Below are positions 536-32,362 of a DNA stretch of 55,544 bases, one piece after another. A program made the translations under genes and the position numbers. This DNA is from Candidatus Yanofskybacteria bacterium (lineage in GTDB: Bacteria > Patescibacteriota > Minisyncoccia > 2-02-FULL-40-12 > GWA2-44-9). The stretch is taken from the NCBI GenBank assembly GCA_023245235.1, contig JAHFKT010000003.1:1-55544 (forward strand), read 5' to 3'. The notes under the pieces are model-generated. The model ran no database searches, was not told the origin of the DNA, and saw nothing but the letters and a program-made list of their open reading frames with translations. Position 1 is the stretch's first letter. The number at the start of each line of letters is the position of its first letter.

Positions 536-817
536 TCACCGGATGATCACCTTCTCATAGACGACCTCATGCTTTCTTAGAAAGTCATACAGCGCCCTGC
601 TTTGAAAGATAATTTCATTAGCTACTGTTTTACTCTGCGTCTTAATGAACAGATTCTTGTGGTCAAGGCTCACCTCAATATCAACCCGGGAACCCGCGGG
701 ACCGAGTACACTGATTAAAAATTCCCGCATTACGCGGTTGAGTATTTTTTGTTGATCTGTATTTTTTTGAAGAGATTCCTTACGTTTCGTAAGACTTCCC
801 TGGATACCGCGGAACAT
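536..817 (-). CDS. DUF721/DciA-like small protein downstream of dnaN
   Basis: 93 aa. Its ATG shares one base with the dnaN TGA (TGATG coupling). The C-terminal part (DIEVSLDHKNLFIKTQSKTVANEIIF) resembles the DUF721 pattern, and the position after dnaN is typical. Confidence 0.55.
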   Translation of the reverse strand: MFRGIQGSLTKRKESLQKNTDQQKILNRVMREFLISVLGPAGSRVDIEVSLDHKNLFIKTQSKTVANEIIFQSRALYDFLRKHEVVYEKVIIR

Positions 818-1905
818 CAGCTTCTGAGAGGCATAATAAGATATACCGTCTTATGATCATTACTCGGACGAATTACCAGGGGGCTCCCGGCGCCTGTGAA
901 TTCAATTATCACATCATCAGTAGGCATGTTCTTCAGTCCGTCAAGAAGATAGTGATAGTTAAGAGATACCTCGAAAGGGTCATTTTTTAATACCGCCGGA
1001 ACCACGGTCTCTATCTCGCCTTTATCGGAATTTTTAGCTACGATCTTCAGATTCTGCTCTCCGCACATCAGTTTGATATCAGAGATATGGGAGGAAAATA
1101 AGCCGGCCAGTCTGATGTTTTTTTCGAGTTCTTCTTTTTTGATAAGAGCCCTGGAAAGAAATTTGTCCGGAATGACCTTTTTATAGTCCGGGAATGTGCC
1201 GTCGACCACCCGGGAAACCAGCTCAAAGTCATCATTCGAGAACGATACCTGATTGTCCGAGTATTTTATCTGAAGTTCTCCGCTCAGATCTCCTGAGATT
1301 CGGATCAATTCGGTGATAGTGTTCCGCGGTAAGATCAGAGAAACCGATTCTGAGTTCTTGAACGGAACTACTGTTTCCGTGAGCCGGAATATATCGGTCG
1401 AGGCTAGAGTCGCCTGATTATTTTTAATCTGAACAAATACTCCGGCTAACTCGGGTCTGGTTTCTGAAACAGCGACGGAATCAAGTACTGTGAGAAGTCC
1501 CTTCTTTAAGTTCTTTGCGGGGATTGTAGCAATTACCGGAGTTTTTATCTTAGGGATGATCGGGAAATCTTTCGGGTCAAACCCCAGTATTTGAGTCTTG
1601 TAATGCTCTGAGTTGATAGTGAGGGTATTGTTTTTGGTGGTGAGGGTTATCTTTTCGTCAGTAATGTTTGATATAAAGTCTGAAAAAATACGAGCCGGAA
1701 CTGCGACTTCCCCGACCTCATCTATTTTTACGCCGATCAGCGCAGTGATTCCGACCTCAAGATTTGTAGCGGATAATTTAAGCCTCCCATTCTCTGTTTT
1801 CAGGAGGATATTATTCAAGATCGGAAGCGCGGTATTCCTCGCAACTACCTTCTCGGTGAGATTTATCGCCTGCTTTAGATTTTTTTGGTTGATAGTTATT
1901 TTCAT
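817..1905 (-). CDS. dnaN: DNA polymerase III beta sliding clamp
   Basis: 362 aa. N-terminus MKITINQKNLKQAINLTEKVVARNTALPILNNILL is typical, three-domain length, directly downstream of dnaA. Confidence 0.95.
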   Translation of the reverse strand: MKITINQKNLKQAINLTEKVVARNTALPILNNILLKTENGRLKLSATNLEVGITALIGVKIDEVGEVAVPARIFSDFISNITDEKITLTTKNNTLTINSEHYKTQILGFDPKDFPIIPKIKTPVIATIPAKNLKKGLLTVLDSVAVSETRPELAGVFVQIKNNQATLASTDIFRLTETVVPFKNSESVSLILPRNTITELIRISGDLSGELQIKYSDNQVSFSNDDFELVSRVVDGTFPDYKKVIPDKFLSRALIKKEELEKNIRLAGLFSSHISDIKLMCGEQNLKIVAKNSDKGEIETVVPAVLKNDPFEVSLNYHYLLDGLKNMPTDDVIIEFTGAGSPLVIRPSNDHKTVYLIMPLRS

Positions 1906-2118
1906 AATTAGTAATAGATAATCAAGTTATCTTTATTATTATCGCTGTGTGTATGTGGAGATAATTCTTTAAGGTTCCCATAATCGGGCTTTTTCTTTGA
2001 TAAACTGCGGGCCCGCTGCCGGGAGGCTTCTGTGAATAAGTCTCCTGGAAACACATCGGTAGCCCGGCACAACTCACCCCCGCGGACAACTTTCATTTTA
2101 TTATCCACATAAAAACCC
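1906..2118. promoter_or_regulatory. dnaA-dnaN intergenic region with DnaA boxes (candidate oriC element)
   Basis: Perfect TTATCCACA at 2101-2109. TGTGAATAA at 2031-2039 has one mismatch to the reverse box TGTGGATAA. A two-mismatch box TGTGGAGAT lies at 1954-1962. Confidence 0.5.
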
Positions 2119-3489
2119 CTACTTATCAAAAGAATTGTAAACACGCTCTTTTATCAAAACCAACTCCTGTTTCAGGGGTTCATTGACCGCGGACTCGGCT
2201 TTAATCTTCTCGCAGGCGTGGATCACGGTCGAGTGATCCCGGCCGCCGAGTTTCTGACCGATCTCAGGGAACGAAAGCTTTGTTTCATCCCGGAGAAGGA
2301 ACATGGCTATTTGCCGGGGTCTGACGATCTCTTTCTTTCTGCTGCGCTTGATAAGATCAGCCGCAGAAATGTTGTAAAAGTCGGCCACTGCCTTAAGGAT
2401 CGACTGCGGTGAGGTCTTTCGATACGGCGCGTTCAGGTACGTGTTGAGAATGTTTTTTACTTCTTTGACGTCGGGGACCTTGTTGTAGATCTGACTGAAC
2501 GCGACGACCCTGTTCAGCGCCCCTTCAAGCTCCCGGACATTCTTCTGGATATGAGTTGCTATGTATACCAGGACATCATCACCGAGCTCGGCGTTCTTGC
2601 CCGCCAGTTTTTGCTTCAGGATAGCCAGCCGGGTTTCGAAGTCGGGTGGTTTAATGTCGGCGATCATACCGCCCTCGAACCGGGAGCGGAGCCGCTCCTC
2701 AAGCGCGGGGATAGCTCCCGGAGGCCTGTCGGATGAAAGAATGATCTGCTTGTTCTTGCCGTATAGTTCATTGAAGGTTGAGAAGATAATATCCTGGGTT
2801 TTTTCTTTCCCGGCGATAAATTGAATATCGTCGATGATCAAAAGGTCCAGCCGGGCATATTGGTTTTTAAGGTCCTCTATTGTTCTGTTGCGGATCGCTT
2901 CAACAATATTAGCAGTGAACCGCTCTGCTGGGACGTAGAGCACCTTGCGTTCTTTATTCTCGGAAACCTTATTACCCACCGCCTGAAGCAGATGAGTTTT
3001 CCCTAAACCCACGCCCCCGAAAAGAAAGAGCGGGTTGTAGAGTTTCCCGATATTTTTTGTCACCGCCAGACATGCCGCATTCGCCAGTTCGTTATCAGAG
3101 CCGACAACATAGGAGTCGAACGAGTATCTCTTGTTAAGGTTGGTGAGCTTATCGATATCGAGGTCTACCGGAATCTCGGTCTTCTCTTCAAGCTCTCTGT
3201 CCAGGATGATCTTAGACAGGTCCTGTTTAGCGAACTCAAGCTTGGGTCTCCCTATTGAGTACTTGATCTCCCGTATCTCGGGGGAGAGATTGTGGATTGA
3301 CTGGAGTATCTTCTTGTTGAATTTGTTTTCGAGCCACTCTTTTATAAACCCGTTCGGTACGCTGACCACGATGTAGCCCTTATCCCGTGCGACAACGGAG
3401 GTGTTTTTAAACCAGGTGATGAAATTTGCCCGCGAAAGCGTCAGCTCCATCTCACCAAGCACTGCCTTCCATAATTCTTCATTGGTCAT
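2119..3489 (-). CDS. dnaA: Chromosomal replication initiator DnaA
   Basis: 456 aa. Walker A GGVGLGKTHL, LLIIDDIQF box, C-terminal DNA-binding helix (IGQKLGGRDHSTVIHA). Confidence 0.97.
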   Translation of the reverse strand: MTNEELWKAVLGEMELTLSRANFITWFKNTSVVARDKGYIVVSVPNGFIKEWLENKFNKKILQSIHNLSPEIREIKYSIGRPKLEFAKQDLSKIILDRELEEKTEIPVDLDIDKLTNLNKRYSFDSYVVGSDNELANAACLAVTKNIGKLYNPLFLFGGVGLGKTHLLQAVGNKVSENKERKVLYVPAERFTANIVEAIRNRTIEDLKNQYARLDLLIIDDIQFIAGKEKTQDIIFSTFNELYGKNKQIILSSDRPPGAIPALEERLRSRFEGGMIADIKPPDFETRLAILKQKLAGKNAELGDDVLVYIATHIQKNVRELEGALNRVVAFSQIYNKVPDVKEVKNILNTYLNAPYRKTSPQSILKAVADFYNISAADLIKRSRKKEIVRPRQIAMFLLRDETKLSFPEIGQKLGGRDHSTVIHACEKIKAESAVNEPLKQELVLIKERVYNSFDK

Positions 3490-3724
3490 AGGTGTTCGGT
3501 TCGTTTAGCTGGCTCCATTATACTGAATCGTAGATCTGATCGGCCGGAATTCAGTTGATATGCTGTTCATAACTCATCGTAACTTTTTCAGAATCACGCC
3601 TGATACAACTTATATAACAAGCCGAGGGAAATAGTAAATATTGACCCCGGCCCCGAAGTGTTTTCTGATGATGAAAAACCGGCCCGAATATTCCAAGCAG
3701 GCCCGGGGTCAGCAAAAAGAAGCA

Positions 3725-3753
3725 TTGACCAAAACAAAAAGAAACGATATATT
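3725..3753 (+). promoter_or_regulatory. Sigma70-like promoter for rpmH-rnpA
   Basis: TTGACC (3725-3730), 17 nt spacer, TATATT (3748-3753), about 30 nt upstream of the rpmH ATG. Confidence 0.45.
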
Positions 3754-3785
3754 GGCTCTATACCAACCCCGTAACGCCACTCACC

Positions 3786-3932
3786 ATGAGGAGAATATTA
3801 GCCGCAACGTGGAGACCCAAAAAGAAGAAAAGAAAGCGCAAGCACGGCTTTCTTTCCCGTATGAGCTCGAAGACCGGCCGGGACGTGTTAGCTCGGCGCA
3901 GACAGAAGGGTCGCAAAAGAACTACCGTCTAG
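3786..3932 (+). CDS. rpmH: 50S ribosomal protein L34 (below the ORF-track size cutoff)
   Basis: Hand translation gives [48 protein letters not shown]. The HGF..RM....GR.VLARRR.KGRKR signature is present, and it sits directly upstream of rnpA. Confidence 0.9.
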
Positions 3933-3942
3933 CAGTTCTGCC

Positions 3943-4278
3943 GTGGCACTTCCTAAAAACAACCGGCTAAAGAAGAAGCGCGACTTTGAGGCGGTTTTCA
4001 AGACGGGCAAGGCCGTAAATGGCACTTTTTTATTCGCTAAATTTAAAAAATCACCGTCGAATGTCTCGCGGTTCGGATTTGTCGTCAGCTCTAAGGTCGC
4101 CAAAAAAGCCGTTGTACGGAACAGGATAAGGAGAGCCCTCACCGCGACAGTTCAGTCCGGTCTCTTGCCTAGGCGTCAGGCATACGATACGGTGGTGGTG
4201 GTCACCAGAAAAGCCGACAGCCCGGATCTGCTTCGCAAGGATCTTGCCGAGGTCATAAAACGGTCGGGAATATTATGA
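3943..4278 (+). CDS. rnpA: RNase P protein component
   Basis: 111 aa, GTG start, LPKNNRLKKKRDFEAVFKTGK motif. Conserved rpmH-rnpA-yidD-yidC order. Confidence 0.9.
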   Translation: MALPKNNRLKKKRDFEAVFKTGKAVNGTFLFAKFKKSPSNVSRFGFVVSSKVAKKAVVRNRIRRALTATVQSGLLPRRQAYDTVVVVTRKADSPDLLRKDLAEVIKRSGIL

Positions 4279-4502
4279 ACACTACACTCTTCCTAATACG
4301 GATATATCAAAAGTTCTCTAACTGGCTCAGGCAGGCCCAGGTTCCCGTAGCCGCCTACTCGACATGCAAATTTTACCCGCCCTGTTCAGAATATGCCGAA
4401 CTCGCGATCAAGCGGCACGGGTTGGCAAAAGGCATGAGGAAATCAATCGTCCGCGTTTGGCGTTGTAATCCGCTTTCTTCCGGAGGCGTCGACTATCCAT
4501 AA
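4275..4502 (+). CDS. yidD: Membrane protein insertion efficiency factor YidD
   Basis: 75 aa with the CKFYPPCSEYA...RCNPLSSGGVDYP signature. Overlaps rnpA by 4 nt. Confidence 0.9.
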   Translation: MNTTLFLIRIYQKFSNWLRQAQVPVAAYSTCKFYPPCSEYAELAIKRHGLAKGMRKSIVRVWRCNPLSSGGVDYP

Positions 4503-5197
4503 TGGCAAATCTGTTCAATACAATTCTGTATACCCCGCTGTTTAACCTGCTCATTTTTCTGTATGACGTGATTCCCGGGCATGATTTCGGCATTGCGATC
4601 ATCGCCCTCACGGTATTAATCCGTGTCGCCTTCTCTCCCCTTTCGCTCAAAGCTCAGCGATCACAAAAAGCGCTCAACGCCCTTAATCCGAAGATCAAGG
4701 ACATAAAAGAGAAGTTTAAAAATGATCAGACGGCTCAAGGGGCGGAGATCATGAAGTTGTATAAAGAGCACGGAGTTAACCCGATAGCCGGATGTCTGCC
4801 GTTGCTGATCCAACTTCCGATCCTCATCGCTCTGTACCGGGCATTTATTGCCGGCCTGAATCCTCAGAGTCTGGCGATGATATATCCGTTCATCCACAAC
4901 CCGGTATCGATAAGCCCGACATTCATCGGCCTCATTACCATCACCGCGCATAACCGGTATTTAGCCGTTGTGGCGGGCCTTCTCCAGTTCTTCCAGGCCC
5001 GCCAGAGCATGAACTATATGCGTTTGGGCGGCCCTCCGGCCCCCGAAATGGCGGCCCTGAATAATCAGATGCTTTACTTCTTTCCGGTATTTATCGTGAT
5101 CATCGGTTGGAATTTGCCGGCCGGTCTGATACTATACTGGATAACGACAACCTTATTTTCTATTGTCGAACAGCTTTATCTCCGCCGAACATCATGA
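4502..5197 (+). CDS. yidC: Membrane insertase YidC (short form)
   Basis: 231 aa, polytopic, with PIAGCLPLLIQLPILIALY and PAGLILYWITTTLFS motifs. TAATG overlap with yidD. Confidence 0.9.
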   Translation: MANLFNTILYTPLFNLLIFLYDVIPGHDFGIAIIALTVLIRVAFSPLSLKAQRSQKALNALNPKIKDIKEKFKNDQTAQGAEIMKLYKEHGVNPIAGCLPLLIQLPILIALYRAFIAGLNPQSLAMIYPFIHNPVSISPTFIGLITITAHNRYLAVVAGLLQFFQARQSMNYMRLGGPPAPEMAALNNQMLYFFPVFIVIIGWNLPAGLILYWITTTLFSIVEQLYLRRTS

Positions 5198-5676
5198 GCA
5201 TCACATCTGACCAAAAAATCGCCATCGCAGGCGCTATACAGAAGATCGTCCGGGCCATGAACCTTGATTGCCAGGTTGAGATGCGGGAAGATCTGAAAGA
5301 AGGCAAGAATGTCGTGGAGGCCTCCTTGAGCACTCCCGACCAGGCCCGCTTTCTTATCGGCAAAAACGGCCAGAATCTTCAAGCACTCGAGCATGTGCTC
5401 CGGGCGATGTTCCTGAGAGACTCAAGTGCCAGCGGGTACATGATCGCGGTAGACGTCAATGACTACAAGAAATCACGGGCTCTTCACGTCATCGAGCTAG
5501 CCCATCAGGCGGTAGCAAGAGTCCGCAGCACCCGAAAAGCCGAGGCTCTCGCACCGATGTCGGCGTATGAACGCCGGGTTGTTCATACAGAGCTGGCCTC
5601 GATGCCTGACATCGTGACAGAAAGCATCGGCCAGGAACCTCAACGAAGGATTATCGTCAAACCGCATAATCCATAA
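5194..5676 (+). CDS. jag: Jag/KhpB-type KH-R3H RNA-binding protein
   Basis: I chose the internal ATG at 5194 (ATGA overlap with the yidC stop). KNGQNLQALEHVL (KH-like) and ERRVVHTEL (R3H) motifs. Confidence 0.85.
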   Translation: MSITSDQKIAIAGAIQKIVRAMNLDCQVEMREDLKEGKNVVEASLSTPDQARFLIGKNGQNLQALEHVLRAMFLRDSSASGYMIAVDVNDYKKSRALHVIELAHQAVARVRSTRKAEALAPMSAYERRVVHTELASMPDIVTESIGQEPQRRIIVKPHNP

Positions 5677-5681
5677 CCCAT

Positions 5682-5717
5682 AACAAAAACGTCCACCGTG
5701 GGGTGGACGTTTTTGTT
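5682..5717. terminator. Bidirectional intrinsic terminator hairpin
   Basis: Perfect 16-bp stem AACAAAAACGTCCACC / GGTGGACGTTTTTGTT with loop GTGG. It has A/T runs on both sides and lies between convergent jag and the beta-propeller gene. Confidence 0.75.
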
Positions 5718-6789
5718 ATTGAGAGAGCGGAGCCGCCCAGATGCTATGGTCGGCCCGATTGGTCAGTACAAGGAAATCCTGCAGATGCGAGATAAAGACA
5801 TCGTCCGGACTGAACACGAGATCCGCGGCCAGTGTCTTTAAAGACAGATCCGACACCAGGACGCGGACGATTGAGGAGCTGGCGTTTTCTTCGGCCACGC
5901 AGACAAAGGAACGGCCATCCAGATGCCACGAACAGTGATCTGCCGTAGCCATAACCCCGACGGCCTGGTCCGTTCCGGATATCATATCGTGGATCCTAAG
6001 ACCCGGCCGATCGTCGACCGTGCTCGAGTAAAGTAATTCCGTTGCATCCGGCGACCAGCGTATCTTAAGATCGGGCATGCTGTCCAGGATTTTAACCAGG
6101 GCTCCGTCCGTACCCAGGGTATAAAGAGTCGAGGCCGTACTCGAAACGCCAGCCATGAGCGACAGCAGTTCATCCGATTGCCAGGATAGAGAAAGGTCTC
6201 TGAGGCGGGTCTTTAAAATTGTCCGAGGATCGCTACCGTCCGGCCGGGCGACAATAATGTCAGTCTCATCGCCGGATATCTTTGCCAGTGCGACGGAAGA
6301 ACTGTCCGGAGAGAATGCCGCCGCGGCGATATCACTGCCCAGCTCCGCGGTTTTATGGGTTTCATAATCAAAGTATTTATATAGCGTACCGCTGGCCGAA
6401 GAATAGAGTCCGAGCACTTTTTTGACATCGGGAGACCAGATGACTCCGATGAGATGAGGCAGTCCGACATCGGATACAAGTGTGCTTTTTTGGTCGGCTA
6501 TACTGATCCGCGAAACAAAGCCGGTCTCGCGATGGTAGTATAAGACGCCGTCGCTGGAGCCGTCGTTAGTGGCGGAAAGCGAATCGTCCGCGGAGATTTT
6601 AAAAAGGCCATCTGGCGCCGCGGAGCCTTCCGGGGGTTTTATGCCGGTGAAGCGGGAAAGCAGGGCTCCTTGCTGCTGGCCGGCGCCGCTCGTTTGTCCG
6701 GATGGATGAGTAAGCAAATATCCGGTAAGGAATGAACCCAGTGATGCGGTGATGACGATCAGGATAATTAGTTGTTTTCGGGTGTCCAT
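5716..6789 (-). CDS. Membrane-anchored TolB-like (PD40/WD40-like) beta-propeller protein
   Basis: 357 aa. N-terminal TM (LIILIVITASLGSFLTGYLL). Repeated WSPD/FSPD motifs (WSPDVKKV, FSPDSSSVA, WSPDATELLY). Last gene of the T4SS-like operon. Confidence 0.6.
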   Translation of the reverse strand: MDTRKQLIILIVITASLGSFLTGYLLTHPSGQTSGAGQQQGALLSRFTGIKPPEGSAAPDGLFKISADDSLSATNDGSSDGVLYYHRETGFVSRISIADQKSTLVSDVGLPHLIGVIWSPDVKKVLGLYSSASGTLYKYFDYETHKTAELGSDIAAAAFSPDSSSVALAKISGDETDIIVARPDGSDPRTILKTRLRDLSLSWQSDELLSLMAGVSSTASTLYTLGTDGALVKILDSMPDLKIRWSPDATELLYSSTVDDRPGLRIHDMISGTDQAVGVMATADHCSWHLDGRSFVCVAEENASSSIVRVLVSDLSLKTLAADLVFSPDDVFISHLQDFLVLTNRADHSIWAAPLSQ

Positions 6790-6797
6790 CGGGATCT

Positions 6798-7211
6798 TTA
6801 TGACGATTCTGCGGTCTGGCCCTCTACTTTCTGTAACAGTTTACTCCGGGATTTTACGAACGTAAATACGAGCGCGACGATATCAATGGGGATGAGGTCA
6901 ATGACCGGGATGGCGTCGATGACCAGGGAGGAGTTCATAAAAAACTTTGCGCGCTTGAGGGATTTGGTATATGGCCGGAGCATGACAAACAATAGGATGC
7001 TTATCAGAACTCCGACGAACCAGCCGATAGTACCGGCGGTCAGCCACTCAACTCCGGTCTGGAGTAACATCAGAAAAAGAGAGATCAGGAATATCAGTAT
7101 GCCCATCCGCTTTTGTTGCGGAGGAGGAGATTCCTGACCGGCCTCAGTTTCCATCCGCTCAGCGGCCCGTTCGATCTCGAGTTCATTTTTAATCTCCAAT
7201 TCATCATCCAT
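6798..7211 (-). CDS. Small integral membrane protein (unknown function), T4SS-like operon
   Basis: 137 aa. Acidic N-terminus followed by 3-4 hydrophobic helices. Starts 2 nt after the VirB4 stop. Confidence 0.5.
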   Translation of the reverse strand: MDDELEIKNELEIERAAERMETEAGQESPPPQQKRMGILIFLISLFLMLLQTGVEWLTAGTIGWFVGVLISILLFVMLRPYTKSLKRAKFFMNSSLVIDAIPVIDLIPIDIVALVFTFVKSRSKLLQKVEGQTAESS

Positions 7212-7212
7212 A

Positions 7213-8964
7213 TTATTGCTGCAATTTAGCCCACTCGTCTTTCGCCTTCTCTATCTCGACGATCTGGCGGGGATCGGAGGTGATGATCTGGTCCTCCGCA
7301 TATGACGCCACCACCCGGATACCGATATGGTTCTGTCCGAGGAAGAATAACCCGAATCCGACCCGGGCCTCCAGGAGGTAGAATTTCTCGGCATCCGTCA
7401 GGTTGAACGTCTGCTGGACGATATCGATCGCAGCCGGAGATTGCTTCATCAGGATCTGGATCGAAGAGTTGGTGAGGATGGTTTTACCCTGAGGACTTGC
7501 CAGAAAGTCCGGAATGTCCTGGGAGATCGTTGTCAGGCCGGCGTAGTATTTACGGGCCCGCTTGGCGATATTGGAAAGGAAGTTAGCGCCGACCTCATAT
7601 TTCATGAGCCACCAGGCCTCGTCAACGATGAGAACCCGCTTCTTGAGCGTGCGCCTGATCGTGACCCAGATAAAATTCAAGATCAGATACATGGCTATCG
7701 GACGCAACTCTTCCTCCATGTCCCGGATACTGAATACGATCATCTGATTATTCAGCGGCACATTGGTCGGCTTATTCAGAAATCCTGAGAATGTCCCCTG
7801 GGTGTATTTTTTCAGCCGGATGGCCATTGATTCCGCACCGGTGAGGCCCTCGAGGATATTTTGGAGGTCAGACAGGACCGGAGGCGGTAACTTGGTGAAA
7901 TCAGTATCGGGCGTGATATCTTTTATCGCGTAGGTCTGGATGAGAGCCTCGTCAAGAACGGCCCCTTCCTCGGGTGTCAGGTTGCCAAGGATCAGTTTTA
8001 ACAGCCCGGTCAGGTCGAGGATGTGGGACTTGAATACATCGGCCGACGACTCCCCTTCTTTCGGGATCGGCAGGTCGAACGGGTTGATGTGCTGATCAGA
8101 GTTGATGGAGATCTTAACGGTTGATCCTCCGACAGTATCGGAGAGATATTTGTACTCATCTTCGGGGTCGATGATCAGAACTTGGGTCCCGAAGATAAGA
8201 CTGCGGAGTATCTCAAGCTTTACGGTATAACTCTTACCGCCGCCGGACTTGCCGAATACAACTGCGTTCGCATTTTCCAGATTGAACCGGTCAAACAATA
8301 CCAATGAATTATTATGCGTATTGATGCCGTATAAGATACCCGAGTTCGAGGTCAGGTCGAACGAGATGAACGGGAACAATGAAGAGATCGGCTCGGTGTT
8401 GAGGGAGGTATGGATATTCAGCCGGTCATCGTCCATAGGGAGGGTCGAATTGAAACCGTCCATCATCCGGAAGGTCGCACTTTTGGCGAATATCAGCTGA
8501 TACTCCAGGAGGCCTTTTATCTTACCCTCGGTGTCGTCAAGTTCCTTCAGACTGTTCTCATAGAATGTGACATAAACGCCGAGCTCGAAGAATTTATCAG
8601 TTCCCTGCTGGAGCTTGTCCCGGAGCACCTCGATATCCTGGATCGCAGTCTCGATGACCGGGTCGCGCACCCTGCCCTTTGACGACTCTTCCATTGATTG
8701 GGCTTCCAGACGGGCCAGCTGGTCACGGAGCTGCTTTAATACGGTGGCGGTGTTCTTCGGGTGTACGAATATCGAGACATCGAACACACGGTCGAGGTTT
8801 ATGATCGGCGAGAACCAGTTGGTGTTCAGGTACCGCGGATAGGTCGCAAGAAATATCGTTCGGGCGTATTTAGGCCCGAGCTGAATAAAGTTGGACGATA
8901 CCGCCAGTGCAGACGGGGCAAGCAGTTCTTCGGCGTTCCGGGTTGTGGTCGTATCCTCGGGCAT
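7213..8964 (-). CDS. VirB4/TraC/PrgJ-family type IV secretion ATPase (core and ATPase part)
   Basis: 583 aa. Walker A GKSGGGKSYTVK, Walker B VLIVDEAWWL. N-terminal LGPKYARTIFLATYPRYLNTNWFSPII motif is typical of Gram-positive VirB4 homologues. Confidence 0.85.
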   Translation of the reverse strand: MPEDTTTTRNAEELLAPSALAVSSNFIQLGPKYARTIFLATYPRYLNTNWFSPIINLDRVFDVSIFVHPKNTATVLKQLRDQLARLEAQSMEESSKGRVRDPVIETAIQDIEVLRDKLQQGTDKFFELGVYVTFYENSLKELDDTEGKIKGLLEYQLIFAKSATFRMMDGFNSTLPMDDDRLNIHTSLNTEPISSLFPFISFDLTSNSGILYGINTHNNSLVLFDRFNLENANAVVFGKSGGGKSYTVKLEILRSLIFGTQVLIIDPEDEYKYLSDTVGGSTVKISINSDQHINPFDLPIPKEGESSADVFKSHILDLTGLLKLILGNLTPEEGAVLDEALIQTYAIKDITPDTDFTKLPPPVLSDLQNILEGLTGAESMAIRLKKYTQGTFSGFLNKPTNVPLNNQMIVFSIRDMEEELRPIAMYLILNFIWVTIRRTLKKRVLIVDEAWWLMKYEVGANFLSNIAKRARKYYAGLTTISQDIPDFLASPQGKTILTNSSIQILMKQSPAAIDIVQQTFNLTDAEKFYLLEARVGFGLFFLGQNHIGIRVVASYAEDQIITSDPRQIVEIEKAKDEWAKLQQ

Positions 8965-8966
8965 GG

Positions 8967-9614
8967 TTATGGGCGTAATTCTCCGGAAGTCTGAAGCTTT
9001 GTGCTCTCTCCGGGGTTATATAAGTTGAAAAATAAGTTTACCAGCTCTTCCTGGCCGAGCAGGCGCGCCTTCAGGCCCAGACTGATCAGGCCGTCAAGGA
9101 CCAGGTCCGCCCGCTGCATGAGCTGGGTCCGGTATGTTTCTATCTCGGCCTGGTTTATCTTCCTTACCACCCCTGCCGGGCTTAAGACGCTTTTGAAGCT
9201 CTGCACAAGGCCGGTCTTCTCGGGTTTTTCGTATATATAGAATGGAAGCACAATATAGAATTTCTTAGACATTATATGGGACAGCTCGAGCAGTTCTTTG
9301 ATGAACTTAGCGTATTCGACGGCCTGGATCTTCATAAGCTCGCTCTCATTATTGACAGAGACGGTGTCCAGGAGCTTCAGGTATTCGTCCATGTTCAGCT
9401 GGCGGGAACTGACCACGATCTGGAGCGGGAAATCGATCGAGTTCAAAAAACGCTGGAAGTTCTGGAGAATGCCGACCTGCTCCGGCTCTGACCGCAGTTC
9501 AAAATTGATCGACGACACTTCGATCACGGCCCTCAGGGAGCCGTTCTTAAGGAGGACGACGGTATCCTGGATATCCGCCACCTCGACCAGGTCTTTTGTG
9601 GATACGTTTGCCAT
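8967..9614 (-). CDS. VirB4 N-terminal-domain-like protein (separate ORF)
   Basis: 215 aa. DLVEVADIQDTVVLLKNGSLRAVIEVSSINFELRSEPEQ resembles the N-terminus of full-length Firmicute VirB4 proteins. The stop is 2 nt before the next ATG, in a different frame. Confidence 0.55.
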   Translation of the reverse strand: MANVSTKDLVEVADIQDTVVLLKNGSLRAVIEVSSINFELRSEPEQVGILQNFQRFLNSIDFPLQIVVSSRQLNMDEYLKLLDTVSVNNESELMKIQAVEYAKFIKELLELSHIMSKKFYIVLPFYIYEKPEKTGLVQSFKSVLSPAGVVRKINQAEIETYRTQLMQRADLVLDGLISLGLKARLLGQEELVNLFFNLYNPGESTKLQTSGELRP

Positions 9615-9919
9615 CAGCGTTTTGGAATTATCGAACCCTCTTCTTCTTTTCTGAATACGTATTTCTTCGGTCCGAACATGAATGACATCGCCATAGCGAT
9701 GTAGTTTATCAGGGGCATATCATCGATCTTCAGGAATGCCAGCGCGCCGGCTATGGCGACGATCGGGATGGCTACGATGACCGCTGCGACCGGGCGCAGA
9801 ACGCTGAAATCAAGAAAAAGCATGGTGCCCCCGGCCGCTATCCAAAGGAATTGCTTCAGAGTGAACGGACCTACGATATTGATCTCGGTCTCGATGAATT
9901 GTGGCAATTGAAATCTCAT
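9614..9919 (-). CDS. PrgI/VirB3-like small two-TM protein
   Basis: 101 aa. LPQFIETEINIVGPFTLKQFLWIAAGG followed by two TM helices matches the PrgI-family pattern. Lies immediately upstream of the VirB4 ORFs. Confidence 0.55.
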   Translation of the reverse strand: MRFQLPQFIETEINIVGPFTLKQFLWIAAGGTMLFLDFSVLRPVAAVIVAIPIVAIAGALAFLKIDDMPLINYIAMAMSFMFGPKKYVFRKEEEGSIIPKR

Positions 9920-9925
9920 AACCGG

Positions 9926-12193
9926 TTAGCTGTTATTCTCTCCGTTCTTCAGGTCCAGGACATTAGCCGGACTTACGCTGGCTGTCGGCCCCGCCGGGGC
10001 GAATCCGATCGGCCGCTGACCTCCGGTTCCCTGGCCCCTGCCCCCCTGAGGAGGATTGCCCTGTGCGGTCGCACCCTGCCCCCCGCCCTGCCTGTTCCGG
10101 GCTTGATTTTGGAACTTCTCCCTCGGCGCCACTTCATTGAGGACCGCAAGCTTATCAGTATCCCCCTGTTCGATCAGGGTCCGCTCAAGATTATTCCGAA
10201 GATCCCAACTTGCTTTCGCTGATGGCACGGGTGAGCCCGGAATAACTGAACCAAAGAGCTTTTCTTTAAGGGCGGCCTTAAAGGCATCCGATTTCCAGAG
10301 GTCATCGGGCATGGCGGCGATATTCTTGGGCTCAGTATTAAGAGAGCCTGCAATAGCGCCGTACTGAGTCGGCATGGTGGATTTTTTGCCGGTAGCTTCT
10401 TCCCCGGGCTGTTCGAGCATGCCGTTATCTTTGCGATACGTATAAACCAGGTCGGGTCTGACCTTGGCCATATCACCAAGGAAGCTCTTGGCTTCCGGGG
10501 ATTCCTTTCCGCCAAGAATACGTACCGCATTGCCCAGCTGGTCGACGTCCTTAATCCCCGCCGCCAGCTTGGGGTCACTTTTCAAATAGTTAAGTAAGTC
10601 ACGACGGACCGGAACATCAGAGCCGTTCTTACCGAACTGATGATTGAGCGCAATATCAAGCAACTGTCTGTTGCCACCGAATTTGGCCTCTTTCGAAGTC
10701 TTTATAAAGTCCTGAAGCGCATAGGGATTACTCTCCAATTCGCTGAGCGTCCTCTTGAACCGGTTGGGATCACCGTCACCGAGCTGAGCCAGCTTTTTGC
10801 GGTAGGCGAAACCCTGAGGGCTGGTTGCATTGGAGCTGTCGGCCCGCTGTCTGATCGTGGCGATGTCAAGACGACCGGCGCTATAGTCATCTTCGATCTT
10901 GTCGTAGTTCTGCTTAATATTCGCAACGAAATCTTTTTGGTTCTTAAATTCCGCACCCCGCACCCCGAAGCGCTGGGCCCAGCCGGCCTGCTGTCGCTGC
11001 GTAGCCGCTTCTCCGCCGTAGATGCGGTTAAACAAACCACCCTGGGGACCGAGACCCTGTTTCTGGATCTCCTGGAGTTTTTGTTGGGCGGCACCTTGAG
11101 CGGCATAGTATGAACTGAATCCGGGTAGTCGTTTCACGAAATTCTTGGCTACGCCCACGCCGCCCTGGAATCCGCTGCCCATCTTTGAAGTAACCGCTAC
11201 CGCAGCGGCGGTACCACCGGCCATTACAAACGCGGAAAAGAGATAGAAGAACAGCGTATTGAAGGTATACGATCCGGTGCCGTAGATCAGCTTCTCGCTG
11301 CTGTATTGGTTTGCTACCGCGTTGATGATCATGTCCCGCTTACTCAAGAATACCAACCCCAGATAAAGGAAAAAGAGATAAACCGGCAGAAATAGATTCC
11401 AGCCGAAGAACAGACCCCACCATTTCTTAAACCAATGTTGTGTCCCGGAAAAGATATTCGCCATCCAGGCCAGGGGGGAGACGATCAGCAGCGCCCAGAT
11501 CACGAATATTCTGAAAAATGCGAACACCGTCGCAACGAGCAGGCTGAACATGAAGATAGCGCTCAGAATCACTCCGAACACCAAGGAGAGTCCGGCCGAC
11601 GATAGAATGTCCATGGTCTTAAAGCCGGGGTCAGTGGAGGTGGTGGGAGCCGTAAGAAATATCGACGGGTTAAGGAACTGGCCGAGCCGCTCGCCGGGAT
11701 TGCCGATCGATGCCAGAAAGACATTGGTCAGGACCTGGCAGCCGTCGATAACCAGACCGCCGATGACAAGACTGAAGTTTATCAGAACCGCGACGATCAG
11801 GAACCGGAATATCAGGTCCTGAAACCGCTGTTTCGAGACATCGAAGATCGTGGCGAACGCCATCCATATCAATGCGATCACGAACAGCATGTTCGAAAAA
11901 TCGCGCAGGATCTTCCATGTTTCAGTTATGACGGGGATATTGCCATAAGCTCGGACGTAGACGGCGTATGAAAATGCTTTGGCCAACCAGGCGGTGATGT
12001 TTTGAATGATCGCGAAAACCACCCAGAACAGATACGAAATGACGTAGCCGATGGCCGAAGTAGCAATGTCGGTGAGACCAAATATATCGGCGCGAATGAA
12101 GTGGGTCGGCATGATCACCAATGCGAAGACCAGAATCGCGATGATCCATATTTTGGCCCGGGATATGTTCTTAAAAAAATTTAGTACTTTCAT
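9926..12193 (-). CDS. Large polytopic membrane protein, candidate VirB6/TrbL-type channel component with long soluble C-terminal domain
   Basis: 755 aa. About 8 or more hydrophobic helices in the first ~340 aa, then a ~400 aa hydrophilic region ending in a Gly/Gln-rich tail (GGGQGATAQGNPPQGGRGQGTGGQ). Confidence 0.5.
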   Translation of the reverse strand: MKVLNFFKNISRAKIWIIAILVFALVIMPTHFIRADIFGLTDIATSAIGYVISYLFWVVFAIIQNITAWLAKAFSYAVYVRAYGNIPVITETWKILRDFSNMLFVIALIWMAFATIFDVSKQRFQDLIFRFLIVAVLINFSLVIGGLVIDGCQVLTNVFLASIGNPGERLGQFLNPSIFLTAPTTSTDPGFKTMDILSSAGLSLVFGVILSAIFMFSLLVATVFAFFRIFVIWALLIVSPLAWMANIFSGTQHWFKKWWGLFFGWNLFLPVYLFFLYLGLVFLSKRDMIINAVANQYSSEKLIYGTGSYTFNTLFFYLFSAFVMAGGTAAAVAVTSKMGSGFQGGVGVAKNFVKRLPGFSSYYAAQGAAQQKLQEIQKQGLGPQGGLFNRIYGGEAATQRQQAGWAQRFGVRGAEFKNQKDFVANIKQNYDKIEDDYSAGRLDIATIRQRADSSNATSPQGFAYRKKLAQLGDGDPNRFKRTLSELESNPYALQDFIKTSKEAKFGGNRQLLDIALNHQFGKNGSDVPVRRDLLNYLKSDPKLAAGIKDVDQLGNAVRILGGKESPEAKSFLGDMAKVRPDLVYTYRKDNGMLEQPGEEATGKKSTMPTQYGAIAGSLNTEPKNIAAMPDDLWKSDAFKAALKEKLFGSVIPGSPVPSAKASWDLRNNLERTLIEQGDTDKLAVLNEVAPREKFQNQARNRQGGGQGATAQGNPPQGGRGQGTGGQRPIGFAPAGPTASVSPANVLDLKNGENNS

Positions 12194-12235
12194 GAGCTAC
12201 GAATAATTATACCGCAAAAGAAGCTTTGGCATGGT

Positions 12236-13873
12236 CTAGGGTCCCCGATATCGGTCCGGACATGTCCCGTTACCGTCGGCAGGGCCGCATCCGGTCGGAT
12301 TCCAGGCTGGCTCGCTCCCGTCCCCTGTTCCGGCCAATACGTCGTAAATATATCCGTCAGAAAAAGCTATGATATCCACGGCGAATCCGCCGCAATTATT
12401 ACCGCCCGGTTTATCAAGGAATCCCGCCCCTCCACCGATCAATTGAACTGCGCGTTGAACAATTGCGAACCTGAAGCACTCATTGACCGCCCCGGGTTCG
12501 GGGAATTGTTTACCGGCGGCGACCAGCTCTGCCTTTGCGGCTGCCACTTCGGCCTGATGATTGCCGTGTTTAGTGCCGGCATCCGCCGGCGGAGGCGCCC
12601 CCGCCTCTGCGGTCGGCGACGGCAGCAAAGGATAGGGTTGGAACGTAGCCCCCGGCAGGCTTACGGCCGGAGAGGCTTTCAGCGCGTTCGCGCACGATTC
12701 CGTGCATCTGGTGTAGGGATACTCGTTCTTGCTGAACTCCTCCCGGACCTGTTCACAGTAGCTCTTGCCGCAGGCGTCATCATGATGGCCGAACAGGTTG
12801 GTGTGGCCGCTGCAGCTCTGGTGCTCCAGCGGAAATTGGGACCAGGCCTGCGGATAGTTAGTTTTGACCCAGAAACCGGCCTCGGGGCTGATGTTATCTT
12901 CGGCCATGCAGAACTCGTCCTTATACGAATCGCCCGTTCTCTGGGGGGAAGGCACCGAGTAGGTGCTCTCGTTCGTGTCCCCGCCTGAGGCGAATGCCAG
13001 GTCAAAAAATCGGTTCACGACGATGGTGGTCACCGCGGTGATCGCCGCGTTCGCGGCCGAGTCGTCCGACGCGGCAAGAAACTTGTTCACGCTGTCAAAA
13101 GCATTCGCGACATTCTTATCTACCGTAGAACCGGGGGTCTTGATGTTGCCGGGGACCAGACATTGAGTGCCGACACGGACTTTGCAGTCCCCTTCGCCGA
13201 AGCCGAGGAATCCGCCGCCCGCGACGGCTTTCGTGGTTGCCGCCGATTGGGCCAGCGCCCGTTGTCTGGTTATCTCGTCGATCGATTGGAACGCGGCGCC
13301 GTAAGGGTTGTTCTGGGGCTGGAGCATCCGGGACCAGGCATCCCAGCCGCCGTTGCCGGCGAAGTCCTGCTGGTATTTGCCGATGGTGAAACCCGAAGGC
13401 AATGAGCAGTTCGTCCCGAGGCCGAATGTCTGAAGCGAATTGGTCCGGGTATTCAGGCCGGTCAGGTTGACCGAAGCGCCCGGCAACACGCCGAAAGCCT
13501 TTTTGATATCGTTCGCGAAGTAGCTGCAGAGGTGGGAACTCGACAGCATGGCCCGGAAGACGCCCTCACCCGTATACTGGCCCTGCGTTGCGAAGTTCAC
13601 CCAGTTCAGGACGAAGCCGGCCTTGCCGTCGGGACCGCTGCTCCTGACCTTATCGAGCACCCGGTTGGTTAGCCGCTGGATGGCTATGGCGGCCGCCACC
13701 TTGCCGGCGACCTTGAGGGCGTAGACGGCCCAGTTCGATGCGCCATAGTCGCTGCCCGCATTCGCCGAAGGAGCCGTCGAAACCAAATACCCGCTCAGGA
13801 GAGCTATCACCAAGAGGCATGCGATGATCGTTTTACTGTGAGCCATTCTCTTCCATTTTAACAAGAGACCCAC
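12236..13873 (-). CDS. Cys-rich secreted or membrane-anchored protein (unknown function), first gene of the T4SS-like operon
   Basis: 545 aa. Signal/anchor IIACLLVIALLSGYLVSTAPSANA (alternative start M10 at 13846). About 16 Cys. GC-rich coding sequence. Confidence 0.6.
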   Translation of the reverse strand: MGLLLKWKRMAHSKTIIACLLVIALLSGYLVSTAPSANAGSDYGASNWAVYALKVAGKVAAAIAIQRLTNRVLDKVRSSGPDGKAGFVLNWVNFATQGQYTGEGVFRAMLSSSHLCSYFANDIKKAFGVLPGASVNLTGLNTRTNSLQTFGLGTNCSLPSGFTIGKYQQDFAGNGGWDAWSRMLQPQNNPYGAAFQSIDEITRQRALAQSAATTKAVAGGGFLGFGEGDCKVRVGTQCLVPGNIKTPGSTVDKNVANAFDSVNKFLAASDDSAANAAITAVTTIVVNRFFDLAFASGGDTNESTYSVPSPQRTGDSYKDEFCMAEDNISPEAGFWVKTNYPQAWSQFPLEHQSCSGHTNLFGHHDDACGKSYCEQVREEFSKNEYPYTRCTESCANALKASPAVSLPGATFQPYPLLPSPTAEAGAPPPADAGTKHGNHQAEVAAAKAELVAAGKQFPEPGAVNECFRFAIVQRAVQLIGGGAGFLDKPGGNNCGGFAVDIIAFSDGYIYDVLAGTGDGSEPAWNPTGCGPADGNGTCPDRYRGP

Positions 13874-13911
13874 TTGCCGACAATCAAGTTATAAGCTCAG
13901 ATCCAAAACTA

Positions 13912-13939
13912 AAAACAGCCGCCTTGCGGCGGCTGTTTT
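13912..13939 (-). terminator. Intrinsic terminator after the VOC gene
   Basis: 12-bp stem AAAACAGCCGCC / GGCGGCTGTTTT with loop TTGC. Confidence 0.7.
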
Positions 13940-13943
13940 CGGC

Positions 13944-14345
13944 TTACTTTTGTCCGGGATTACCGGGCATGATGGGTTTGATGACACCGATGACGTTGCC
14001 CTCGCAGTCCTCAACGTAGGCGTAGCGGCCCACCATTGGAATATCGAGAATTTCTCCGACGAGCTTGCCGCCGGATTTCTTGACCTTTTCCACGGCCGCA
14101 TCGCAGTCATCGACCGCGATGACGAGCACCGGAGACTTTATCGTTCCCCGCTTCATCATGCCGCCATTGATGAACGCCGGCCGCTCGGGCATCCCCTTCT
14201 CGTCGGTCGGTCCCGTCTGGAGGATGACATAGTTGCCATACTCTCCCGACATCACGTTCATCTTCCAGCCGAAGTTATCGGCATAGAATTTCTTTGCCCG
14301 TTCCACATCTTCCGCCGGTATCTCAAAATGTACTACTGGGTCCAT
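13944..14345 (-). CDS. VOC (glyoxalase/bleomycin-resistance/dioxygenase) family protein
   Basis: 133 aa. VHFEIPAEDVERAKKFYADNFGW and GGKLVGEILDIPMVGRYAYVEDCEGNVIGV are typical of the VOC fold. Confidence 0.85.
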   Translation of the reverse strand: MDPVVHFEIPAEDVERAKKFYADNFGWKMNVMSGEYGNYVILQTGPTDEKGMPERPAFINGGMMKRGTIKSPVLVIAVDDCDAAVEKVKKSGGKLVGEILDIPMVGRYAYVEDCEGNVIGVIKPIMPGNPGQK

Positions 14346-14385
14346 ATGATTTATGTTAGTTGGTTAACCTTAATATTAGTATATT

Positions 14386-14856
14386 TTATGAATTTTGGAT
14401 TGGTTCAGGAAAAAATAAACCGATTTTTAGACTTTCCAGCCGACCTTTTAAATCAGAGTTTAAAATCTCCTCTATTGTTGGCCAAGGAGTATAAGCTCTT
14501 GTTACGTGGCTTATATTATTATGTCGAGCTGCTCTTGCTTTTTTAACCACAGAATGACCCTCGAGCTGATCGATAGCTGGGCCATAGTAATTTCTTTTTA
14601 AAGAATCAATATTTTTTCTTGTATCAAATAAGTTTTGTAATCTAACACAAAGTTGGTCCCGAGTAAGCTCAAGAAGAACCCTTGCTGTCTCAGCTGTTAT
14701 GGGAAGGCCCGCTCTTTCGGAGGCATTCATTTTTCTGATTTTTAATACCCAATTATTCATTTCAGATAAAGCCTTGATTGAATCACAGCACTCGCTAATA
14801 ACAAAATGTATAGATTGAAGTGCGGGTCTTTTTTTAGAATTATTTTTTAAATTCAT
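14386..14856 (-). CDS. Hypothetical protein, AT-rich, possible HEPN-like domain
   Basis: I chose the ATG at 14856 because the longer ORF runs through the tRNA. RHNNISH fits the Rx4-6H HEPN motif. Visibly AT-rich relative to its neighbours. Confidence 0.45.
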   Translation of the reverse strand: MNLKNNSKKRPALQSIHFVISECCDSIKALSEMNNWVLKIRKMNASERAGLPITAETARVLLELTRDQLCVRLQNLFDTRKNIDSLKRNYYGPAIDQLEGHSVVKKARAARHNNISHVTRAYTPWPTIEEILNSDLKGRLESLKIGLFFPEPIQNS

Positions 14857-14859
14857 GTG

Positions 14860-14930
14860 TGGACCTGGGGAGAATCGAACTCCCGACCCGGCAATGCGAA
14901 TGCCGTATAATACCACTTTACGACAGGCCC
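14860..14930 (-). tRNA. tRNA-Ala (anticodon CGC)
   Basis: Hand-folded cloverleaf. Acceptor GGGCCTG/CAGGTCC with a G3:U70 pair, anticodon loop TTCGCAT, T-arm GGGAG-TTCGATT-CTCCC. No encoded CCA. Confidence 0.9.
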
Positions 14931-15328
14931 TTCTTCTTTAGGTATTCGTTAATCAACTTGATATGCTTCTGGTCTTTGGTCCGGCCGTGGAGCTTCTTCC
15001 AGACCAGCACGCTTTCCAATGATACGAATGGCAGGCCGTCGATTGTTTCCGCTTCACGGATGAGCTTGCCGATGTCCCAGATACCGGGCCGCCAGTCCCT
15101 CCAGAGCTCTATCTTAATACCGGCATCCAGGTACGGACTGCCGCTGGGCGCTTTTTTAAGTATCCAGCCCGGCCGCTCCTGGCTTTCCTCGAACACATCC
15201 TTGGTTACGATGATATCAAGGTCGTGGGGCTGGATGACCCCGCGCACCAACAGCGGCCCGCTGCCGAAGATGGCGTACTTGCCCTTCGGAAGGCCCAGGT
15301 CTTTTAATCGGTGAAATAGTGTTTTCAT
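14918..15328 (-). CDS. Minimal nucleotidyltransferase (Pol-beta superfamily, MNT-like)
   Basis: 136 aa. IFGSGPLLVRGVIQPHDLDIIV matches the GS...RG...DxD NTase motif. The last 13 nt, including the stop, overlap the 5' end of tRNA-Ala. Confidence 0.65.
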   Translation of the reverse strand: MKTLFHRLKDLGLPKGKYAIFGSGPLLVRGVIQPHDLDIIVTKDVFEESQERPGWILKKAPSGSPYLDAGIKIELWRDWRPGIWDIGKLIREAETIDGLPFVSLESVLVWKKLHGRTKDQKHIKLINEYLKKKGLS

Positions 15329-15329
15329 G

Positions 15330-16007: not shown

Positions 16008-16027
16008 GCGTCTGTTTAGCCGCTGTG

Positions 16028-16098
16028 TCGGGCCGCCGGGAATCGAACCCGGTCCCTACGAACCCGAATCGTATGTACTACCGGCATACTCCGGCCCG
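16028..16098 (-). tRNA. tRNA-Pro (anticodon CGG)
   Basis: Acceptor CGGGCCG/CGGCCCG (C1:G72), discriminator A, anticodon loop TTCGGGT, T-arm CCGGG-TTCGATT-CCCGG. No encoded CCA. Confidence 0.9.
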
Positions 16099-16124
16099 AC
16101 ACAACGGCCAATCCTTTTTAAGTT

Positions 16125-27538: not shown

Positions 27539-27539
27539 G

Positions 27540-29287: not shown

Positions 29288-29330
29288 ATGGCCATTATAC
29301 TACAACCGGGGCCGTGGGGAGGGATAAAAC

Positions 29331-29361
29331 AAAATCCCGCCTCTTGAGGAGGCGGGATTTT
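29331..29361 (-). terminator. Strong intrinsic terminator after the major pilin gene
   Basis: 13-bp stem AAAATCCCGCCTC / GAGGCGGGATTTT with a 5-nt loop. Confidence 0.7.
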
Positions 29362-29373
29362 GTGAGGGGCAGA

Positions 29374-29934: not shown

Positions 29935-30023
29935 GGCTTGCGTAGTTCTGGCCTTAGTTTGTGCCCCGGAGGACTACCGAGTCAAAAACAAACGCCAAGA
30001 AGTTATTTAGCTGATTTGTTTAA

Positions 30024-30052: not shown

Positions 30053-30082
30053 TCCAGGATATCAACAGAGTTCCCCGGCCGT

Positions 30083-32358: not shown

Positions 32359-32362
32359 AGAT

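Follow-up and report, generated by a model that had tools for sequence, protein, structure and literature searches.

The 55.5-kb stretch of Candidatus Yanofskybacteria DNA analysed here (55,544 nucleotides, hereafter the window) carries at 5716-13873 seven minus-strand open reading frames (ORFs) in a row, which encode VirB3-, VirB4- and VirB6-like proteins of a type IV secretion system (T4SS), a TrsD-like protein and three further proteins. Genes called up to 10 kb past either end of the window were also checked (ENA ERZ27297709 assemblies), and about 75 kb was inspected in all. The seven ORFs are separated by 42, 6, −1 (a 1-nt overlap), 2, 1 and 8 nt, spacings which make the genes operon-like. 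The original prediction, an earlier reading of this DNA made without database searches, had described seven co-directional, tightly packed minus-strand genes at the same coordinates, and we find them as described. The features of the locus, from its 5′ border, are as follows.

13911..13940, minus strand: terminator-like hairpin, 13-bp stem and T run; ends the upstream glyoxalase gene; 5′ border of the operon
12236..13873, minus strand: g1, secreted or anchored Cys-rich protein, 545 amino acids (aa), with 15 Cys and one N-terminal hydrophobic segment
12239..12604, minus strand: C-terminal 122-aa module of g1, PPPADAxTKHGNH ... GNNCxGFAVDIIAFxDGYIYDVL ... CPDRYRxP
9926..12193, minus strand: g2, extended VirB6-like polytopic membrane protein, 755 aa, assigned from transitive PF04610 matches, a TrwI match and topology
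9947..9964, minus strand: conserved C-terminal tail motif NVLDLK of g2, in common with the tail of a separate ORF in relatives
9614..9919, minus strand: g3, PrgI/VirB3-like small membrane protein, 101 aa (PF12666), with a 1-nt overlap with the g4 start
8967..9614, minus strand: g4, TrsD-like protein, 215 aa, homologous to the VirB4 N-terminal domain (NF041427, VirB4_plasma, PF26593)
7213..8964, minus strand: g5, VirB4 ATPase of MPF-FATA/CD1110 type, 583 aa (NF045971 and Pfam P-loop families)
6798..7211, minus strand: g6, small membrane protein, 137 aa, with a charged N-terminus and three hydrophobic segments
5716..6789, minus strand: g7, membrane-anchored TolB-like beta-propeller, 357 aa (transmembrane (TM) segment, TIGR02800, TolB structures)

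At the 3′ end of the operon the stop codon of the convergent gene jag is only 40 nt away. With the hairpin at 13940-13911 on the other side, the seven-gene block looks, from its sequence, like a single operon of about 8.2 kb. Two distances given in the original prediction are corrected by these positions: the operon had been said to start about 2 kb from jag and about 10 kb from dnaA, and the gaps are the 40 nt just mentioned and, from VirB4 to dnaA, about 3.7 kb. The GC content of the operon is similar to that of its flanks. No direct repeats of at least 15 nt were found within 3000-17000, in keeping with the earlier statement that the operon has no flanking repeats, and a promoter scan was uninformative, returning 4 promoter-like sites against a mean of 8.3 in shuffled sequence.

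Conservation was assessed in 80 loci (L001-L080), the best 80 of 577 confirmed VirB4 relatives in Genome Taxonomy Database (GTDB) genomes, chosen by VirB4 similarity. These VirB4 relatives are 56-88% identical, and nearly all are labelled as Patescibacteria, Parcubacteria or Yanofskybacteria metagenome-assembled genomes, with a few under generic titles; among those labelled informatively, Candidatus Yanofskybacteria and Paceibacterota come closest. The window thus comes from a Paceibacteria (Parcubacteria) bacterium near Candidatus Yanofskybacteria. The best hidden Markov model (HMM) for g5 was NF045971 (conju_CD1110; 3e-105, 353 bits against a cutoff of 325), and the ranking of models ran from CD1110/FATA at 353 bits through the VirB4 of mycoplasma integrative and conjugative elements (ICEs; 263) and TraC-F (181) to VirB4_CagE (119). 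Scores against the CedB and CedD models (28 and 23 bits) were far below the respective cutoffs of 700 and 600. Together with Pfam matches to PF19044, PF12846 and PF01935 (P-loop_TraG, AAA_10 and DUF87), and with a Walker A motif GKSGGGKS and a Walker B motif LIVDEAWW that can be read in the translation, this bears out the predicted VirB4 ATPase with both Walker motifs. By HMM ranking and nearest genome matches, g5 falls in the Patescibacteria clade of VirB4 that is nested in the mating-pair formation (MPF) class MPF-FATA.

Just upstream of g5, g4 had been taken for an ORF of the VirB4 N-domain. The homology holds (VirB4_plasma, positions 103-233, 2.1e-10), but g4 is a separate TrsD-like gene and not part of a broken VirB4: it matches NF041427 TrsD at 2.1e-6, and its precomputed match is PF26593 (TraC-like). 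A frameshifted or broken VirB4 is ruled out by the g4/g5 junction, which consists of TAA, 2 nt and then ATG, and by the TrsD match just upstream of VirB4 in 79 of the 80 relatives. In most of the loci inspected for ORFs the match is an ORF of its own; in L017, L020 and L022 it is apparently merged with VirB4. The PrgI/VirB3-like assignment of g3 is likewise upheld, since its score against PF12666 PrgI (8.2e-10, 39.5 bits) exceeds the gathering threshold of 27, and a PrgI gene is present in 76/80 related loci.

The VirB6-like protein g2 has no direct Pfam match, and its designation as VirB6-like, of the ‘extended VirB6’ type, is suggested by transitive evidence. PF04610 (TrbL/VirB6) was matched by 6 of 40 g2 orthologues (best 3.5e-10), and the g2 family profile had as its top PDB match TrwI, the VirB6 of R388 (7o3v_F), although weakly (E=0.044). 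A hydropathy scan showed about seven hydrophobic segments in residues 1-335 followed by a hydrophilic tail of about 420 aa, so the predicted VirB6-like polytopic protein with a soluble tail of about 400 aa is supported, albeit indirectly. Residues N101, N139, S141, R228 and W258 are invariant, and a VirB6-like gene was found in 67/80 loci. The tail ends in a conserved motif (g2 C-terminus ..PANVLDLKNGENNS). Relatives carry between VirB6 and PrgI a poorly conserved separate ORF of 130-420 aa, which has no N-terminal hydrophobic segment in the examples read, and which ends N-[VI]-[VI]-D-L-R-[NK] in the near clade (L001-L039) and DPYREP-[IVM]-E in the far Paceibacteria clade. The window and L001 have lost the body of that ORF and keep its tail alone, fused to VirB6. 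A full fusion of g2 with the downstream protein of about 165 aa was ruled out, as only the terminal 15-55 residues or so are in common. That the tail alone was kept suggests that the hydrophilic tail of g2 is probably cytoplasmic, and that its N-V/I-x-D-L-R/K motif may be a functional element.

Across the relatives the block has a fixed order. Of the loci in which all five were found, 55/55 have VirB6, PrgI, TrsD, VirB4 and the propeller one after another on one strand, and the order VirB4, propeller, jag(−), yidC, dnaA(+) holds in 49/49 loci, which span Yanofsky-, Giovannoni-, Sung-, Azam- and Nomurabacteria; the median VirB4-dnaA distance in relatives is 5.1 kb. The original prediction had raised the question whether the seven-gene block is conserved in related genomes; for the five genes just named it is, and the block is colinear with the origin genes. 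In 56/59 loci the conservation of VirB4 exceeds that of DnaA (median 65% versus 64%, top 88% versus 82%), a comparison made on loci chosen by VirB4 similarity. Identity to relatives is only 25-32% for VirB6, g1 and the propeller. The colinearity and the constraint on VirB4 argue that this is, as far as sequence comparison goes, the pattern of a strongly constrained, vertically inherited block whose surface parts evolve fast, and not that of a mobile element.

Upstream of the operon's 5′ border, gene content is not conserved. Close relatives (L001-L039) carry upstream of g1 uvrD/pcrA, ksgA, a small secreted Cys protein and an anchored TSP3-repeat protein of about 300 aa, whereas the window has tRNA-Ala(CGC), a gene of the glyoxalase family and two ORFs without assignment (13944-15328), as well as nadK, in their place. 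The rearrangement breakpoint lies right at this border. L002 has a glyoxalase gene upstream of uvrD; the TSP3-repeat protein and the small secreted protein were searched for in the window and are absent from it. In the distant Paceibacteria (L040-L080) the g6-like gene and the propeller are separated by two additional genes, which this lineage lacks and which encode an N-anchored protein of about 330 aa and a PF18895-like VirB2 pilin. An HMM built from 23 cluster-linked pilins of these distant relatives found no VirB2-like pilin in the window (best E=0.44) or in L001-L039; such pilins were found in L040-L080. T4SS pilins are reported among the highly expressed genes of Minisyncoccus and Microsyncoccus, and none is listed for Yanofskyibacterium (PMC10936435), which is consistent with a pilin-less T4SS cluster in this lineage.

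The genes on the jag side of the operon form an origin-proximal block (817..5676).

817-1905, minus strand: dnaN (Pfam match)
2119-3489, minus strand: dnaA (Pfam match)
3786-3932, plus strand: rpmH (L34-like translation)
3943-4278, plus strand: rnpA
4275-4502, plus strand: yidD
4502-5197, plus strand: yidC
5107-5676, plus strand: jag
48064-48975, minus strand: Xer-type tyrosine recombinase, 303 aa (XerC/XerD 1e-72), outside this block

The mobility scan took in 41 ORFs from the rest of the window, namely the main non-overlapping ones with 150 aa or more and a few that are shorter. Neither a relaxase nor VirD4 was found among these 41 ORFs, as the original prediction had stated for the window, or among the genes called up to 10 kb past each end, and no mobile-element integrase was found in either; an ordinary ICE had been expected to show such genes immediately outside the window. 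The earlier statement that there is no integrase holds for element integrases and needs one correction, in that the Xer-type recombinase listed above lies 34 kb from the operon. It matched XerC, XerD and archaeal XerA-type models at about 1e-70 each, above cutoff for the XerA model only, and from its sequence is probably the single Xer of a reduced genome and not an element integrase. The other genes of the window are housekeeping genes (NAD kinase, CCA-adding enzyme, murA, murB, gatA, ligA, IF-2, histidine kinase, PNPase), as are those called within 10 kb of both ends.

Several further observations were made in the window. The dnaA-dnaN spacer (2031-2109) holds a perfect DnaA box and a second box that has one mismatch (TTATCCACA); the DnaA-box scan found these two boxes only, with no overall enrichment and no clear cluster upstream of dnaA, and did not locate oriC. 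A type IV pilus cluster lies at 26987-37960 on the minus strand, 13 kb from the T4SS operon, and comprises four N_methyl prepilin-like genes, PilD, PilC, PilT-like and PilB-like ATPases, PilO, PilM and two unassigned ORFs. It is followed by a comF-like gene (38026-38748, plus strand), and another PilB-like ATPase lies just past the left end of the window. IF-2 (40937-42466, plus strand) has only 509 aa and is without the usual long N-terminal region, which fits a reduced genome. At 40464-40553 on the plus strand ARAGORN called a tRNA-Ser whose anticodon, ACT, has A at position 34; a normal tRNA-Ser(GCT) lies 500 nt away, at 39865-39958. In bacteria a serine tRNA with A34 would be unusual, and this call may be a miscall or a pseudogene.

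The remaining three proteins of the operon, g1, g6 and g7, match no T4SS family, in line with the earlier view that the beta-propeller and the Cys-rich protein are not standard T4SS parts. The membrane-anchored TolB-like beta-propeller was recognised correctly: g7 has one N-terminal TM segment, matches the TIGR02800 TolB propeller at 1.2e-9, and its family profile matches TolB structures at 2.5e-13, which supports PD40/TolB-type blades. Beta-propeller Pfam families, PF07676 among them, occur on its homologues, and in 63/80 loci the propeller gene is the one next to jag. Because the TolB N-domain is missing and the host is reported to be monoderm (PMC12102498), g7 is not a Tol-Pal component. 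The predicted small membrane protein g6 does have its three hydrophobic segments and gave no family match in Pfam or NCBIfam. A positional counterpart with 2-3 TM segments directly follows VirB4 in most related loci that also carry the propeller, with sequence similarity to g6 detectable in 11/80 loci only.

The 15 Cys and single N-terminal hydrophobic segment of g1 agree with its description as a Cys-rich secreted protein. The start at GTG gives 545 aa; the NCBI model starts at ATG 13846 and gives 536 aa. An N-terminal domain conserved over residues ~60-290 is followed in g1 by a variable middle and the 122-aa C-terminal module. It has no Pfam, NCBIfam or PDB-sequence match, profile searches of the family and of its C-terminal domain included, and its 18-25 homologues in the protein database are all without a Pfam domain. 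By tblastn, g1 lies upstream of VirB6 in at least 41/80 related loci. The full-length AlphaFold2 (AF2) model was poor (predicted local distance difference test (pLDDT) 59.7, predicted template modelling score (pTM) 0.31), and a Foldseek search with it against the PDB found nothing. Modelled alone, the 122-aa module reached pLDDT 93 and pTM 0.87. Foldseek against the PDB gave nothing significant for the module either, with papain-like folds at E=0.9-4 and an NlpC/P60 autolysin as the best (E=0.9), and we did not call it an NlpC/P60 or LAS peptidase on such values. One uncharacterised phage protein was matched in a viral structure library (E=0.016). The conserved Cys of the module would be more in keeping with disulfides than with a catalytic role. 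At E<=1e-3 the protein library holds 345 cluster representatives of the module, many of them stand-alone proteins of about 200 aa. It stands at the C-terminus of two PF18895 T4SS pilins (P0037/P0038) and also on Ig-like or FG-GAP surface proteins, but mostly without a recognisable partner domain; P0015 and P0039-P0041 are further proteins that carry it. A T4SS-pilin-specific module was ruled out, as PF18895 was found on only 2/137 family members scanned; judged by the sequences that carry it, the module is a general extracellular one and not T4SS-specific.

Systems of this kind have been described before. In Southlakia epibionticum a T4SS cluster adjoining dnaA/dnaN (SEML1_0006-0019) is essential for epibiotic growth by Tn-seq; it encodes VirB4, TrsD-like, PrgI and VirB6-like proteins, a pilin array and lysozyme/peptidase proteins, and has no recognisable coupling protein or relaxase (Wang et al. 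2023, Cell, PMC10633639). In a survey of 3,035 Patescibacteria genomes, VirB4 was present in 2,417 and was monophyletic inside MPF-FATA (Quinonero-Coronel et al. 2025, Microb Genom, PMC12102498). According to the same survey, virB4 has genes for TrsD, VirB3/PrgI, VirB6 and VirB2-like pilins in its vicinity, and hardly any relaxases occur. The cluster lies, notably in Paceibacteria, in the neighbourhood of dnaA, dnaN, rnpA, rpmH and ksgA, and a PF18895 pilin gene or array near virB4 is frequent but not universal (1135 assemblies). These points on the Patescibacteria T4SS are restated in a 2025 review (PMC12857230). The novelty implied in the original prediction is thereby lost, since the same system, relaxase-less and near dnaA, is published in all three.

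Taken as a whole, the locus is best explained as a vertically inherited, chromosomal, relaxase-free Patescibacteria T4SS operon beside the origin genes, and not as an ICE, a reading to which we assign a probability of roughly 0.85. The absence of mobility genes and the colinearity with the origin genes both point to such a machine, and the HMM searches, run on all seven proteins, support VirB3 and VirB4, and VirB6 indirectly. On this evidence the domesticated, chromosomal machine of Gram-positive VirB3/B4/B6 type that had been proposed stands. From what is known of the protein families, VirB4/TrsD would dock on VirB3 and VirB6 at the cytoplasmic membrane and power a VirB6-based channel or assembly platform. 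The cytoplasmic VirB6 tail with its terminal N-V-L-D-L-K motif would probably contact the ATPase module, and the propeller, g6 and g1 may form the extracytoplasmic part of the machine. By analogy with Southlakia, it would act at the host-cell interface in protein export, surface display or contact-dependent exchange, and not in conjugative DNA transfer. Several points weigh against this explanation. Its function is argued by analogy with Southlakia, and the T4SSs of Paceibacteria are known from genes alone. The VirB6 call on g2 is indirect, given the missing Pfam match and the PDB match at E=0.044, and the VirB4 class placement comes from HMM ranking and nearest matches. That the propeller, the 137-aa protein and the Cys-rich protein belong to the machine is suggested only by operon position and conserved synteny. 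Finally, VirD4-like homologues are far from virB4 in most Patescibacteria genomes (PMC12102498), and the scans for a type IV coupling protein (T4CP), pilin and relaxase cover the ~75 kb inspected.

One rival explanation is a decayed or cryptic ICE, or a conjugative-plasmid remnant, that landed near the origin by chance. The VirB4 does belong to the CD1110/CTn2 conjugative type, there is a tRNA-Ala gene some 1 kb upstream, and the upstream gene content is unlike that of relatives. The colinearity of the block with dnaA, yidC and jag in every one of the 49 genomes, across five lineages, largely refutes chance landing, as do the stronger conservation of VirB4 than of DnaA, the absence of a relaxase, T4CP or element integrase in ~75 kb, the lack of direct repeats and a GC content like that of the flanks; we consider such a remnant very improbable. 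Import of DNA or nucleotides by a competence-type machine like Helicobacter ComB or archaeal Ced, feeding a nucleotide auxotroph, is a second rival. It would agree with a system that lacks a relaxase and a T4CP, with the weak P-loop similarities to CedB and CedD, with the co-localisation of T4SS genes with comF, recG and radA in class ABY1 (PMC12102498), and with the nucleotide auxotrophy of Patescibacteria (PMC10633639). In Southlakia, however, competence depends on type IV pili and ComEC, and comEC can be deleted while the T4SS is essential (PMC12857230), which argues that the essential role is not ComEC-linked DNA uptake. The window also has its own type IV pilus cluster and comF-like gene, and the CedB and CedD scores are far below cutoff. 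DNA import is thus the weaker alternative to protein export or display at the host interface, and we think it improbable.

A third possibility concerns the extent of the machine, which might consist of VirB6, PrgI, TrsD and VirB4 alone, with g1, g6 and g7 as unrelated envelope genes that share an origin-proximal operon. That these three match no T4SS family would be expected under this scenario, as would the different neighbours of the Southlakia cluster (lysozyme/peptidase proteins and a pilin array, no propeller) and the occurrence of the g1 module mostly on proteins with no T4SS link, the pilin domain being on 2/137 scanned. Yet the genes lie 1-42 nt apart on a single strand, and the propeller (63/80), g1 (at least 41/80) and a g6-like gene (most loci) stay with the core though the upstream genes vary. 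The pilin gene of distant relatives, moreover, sits between the g6-like and propeller genes. We hold the core-only machine to be unlikely, if a serious contender. Taking the findings together, one could tentatively read the operon as a pilus-less, stripped-down T4SS, in which a VirB3/VirB4(+TrsD)/VirB6 platform, with no VirB8-like protein and no recognised hydrolase, has had its outer face rebuilt from the propeller and the Cys-rich protein (whose module is displayed on T4SS pilins in other lineages), and in which the tail motif N-V/I-x-D-L-R/K, retained where its gene has otherwise gone, would couple VirB6 to the ATPase. We regard this composite as rather doubtful. If true, it could reflect adaptation to a different host envelope, an idea prompted by the cultivated Yanofskyibacterium, which parasitises the archaeon Methanothrix.

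In the Patescibacteria, a very large and mostly uncultivated group, the T4SS counts among the few machines whose essential role in epibiotic life has been shown. The present locus adds nothing to that headline; it is a compact seven-gene Paceibacteria example that shows accessory genes travelling with the core, and it offers three handles for structural and co-culture work, namely the TolB-like propeller, the confidently modelled 122-aa module and the VirB6 tail motif. Its main value lies in a clean classification as a real, chromosomal and published system that is not an ICE.

Compared with the conjugative systems of MPF-FATA (C. difficile CTn2, pCF10 Prg/Pcf, pGO1 Trs), the window shares a CD1110-type VirB4, PrgI and TrsD and the absence of outer-membrane core genes. 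It differs in having no relaxase, T4CP (PcfC/VirD4) or PrgB-type adhesin, no recognised PrgK/TrsG/CD419-type hydrolase or PrgL/VirB8-like protein, and in not being on a mobile element. No operon protein matched a VirB1-like hydrolase (PrgK/TrsG/CD419) or a VirB8-like protein (PrgL/TraM) in searches with Pfam and NCBIfam. CD419-like matches are linked to virB4 in Paceibacteria (PMC12102498), and g1 could therefore be such a match. Helicobacter ComB and archaeal Ced are likewise VirB4-family ATPase machines without a relaxase; they differ in that the window VirB4 matches CedB and CedD weakly, and Saccharibacteria genetics speak against DNA uptake as the essential role. The closest functional analogy is with effector T4SSs that lack a T4CP, Bordetella Ptl and Brucella VirB, which have no VirD4-type coupling protein and export proteins, not DNA. 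These are diderm MPF-T systems with a full VirB1-B11 set, an outer-membrane core and a VirB4 of an unrelated clade.

The closest likeness overall is with the T4SS of the Patescibacteria clade. In common are VirB4 with adjacent TrsD-like, PrgI/VirB3 and VirB6 genes, a chromosomal position by dnaA, dnaN, rnpA and rpmH, no relaxase or coupling protein nearby, and an ultra-small monoderm host of the candidate phyla radiation with type IV pili. The window departs from the clade in having no VirB2-like pilin gene or array, which the closest 39 loci also lack, and in that VirB1-like hydrolases and an NTF2/VirB8-like protein were not recognised. Its operon has instead the TolB-like propeller, the 3-TM protein, the Cys-rich secreted protein and a VirB6 with the fused tail motif, accessory features that are absent from the main text of PMC12102498. 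The locus is a further member of an already described system: the original prediction read it rightly, its central claims are in print, and what is new relative to the literature searched is modest, namely the lineage-specific accessory set and the tail motif.

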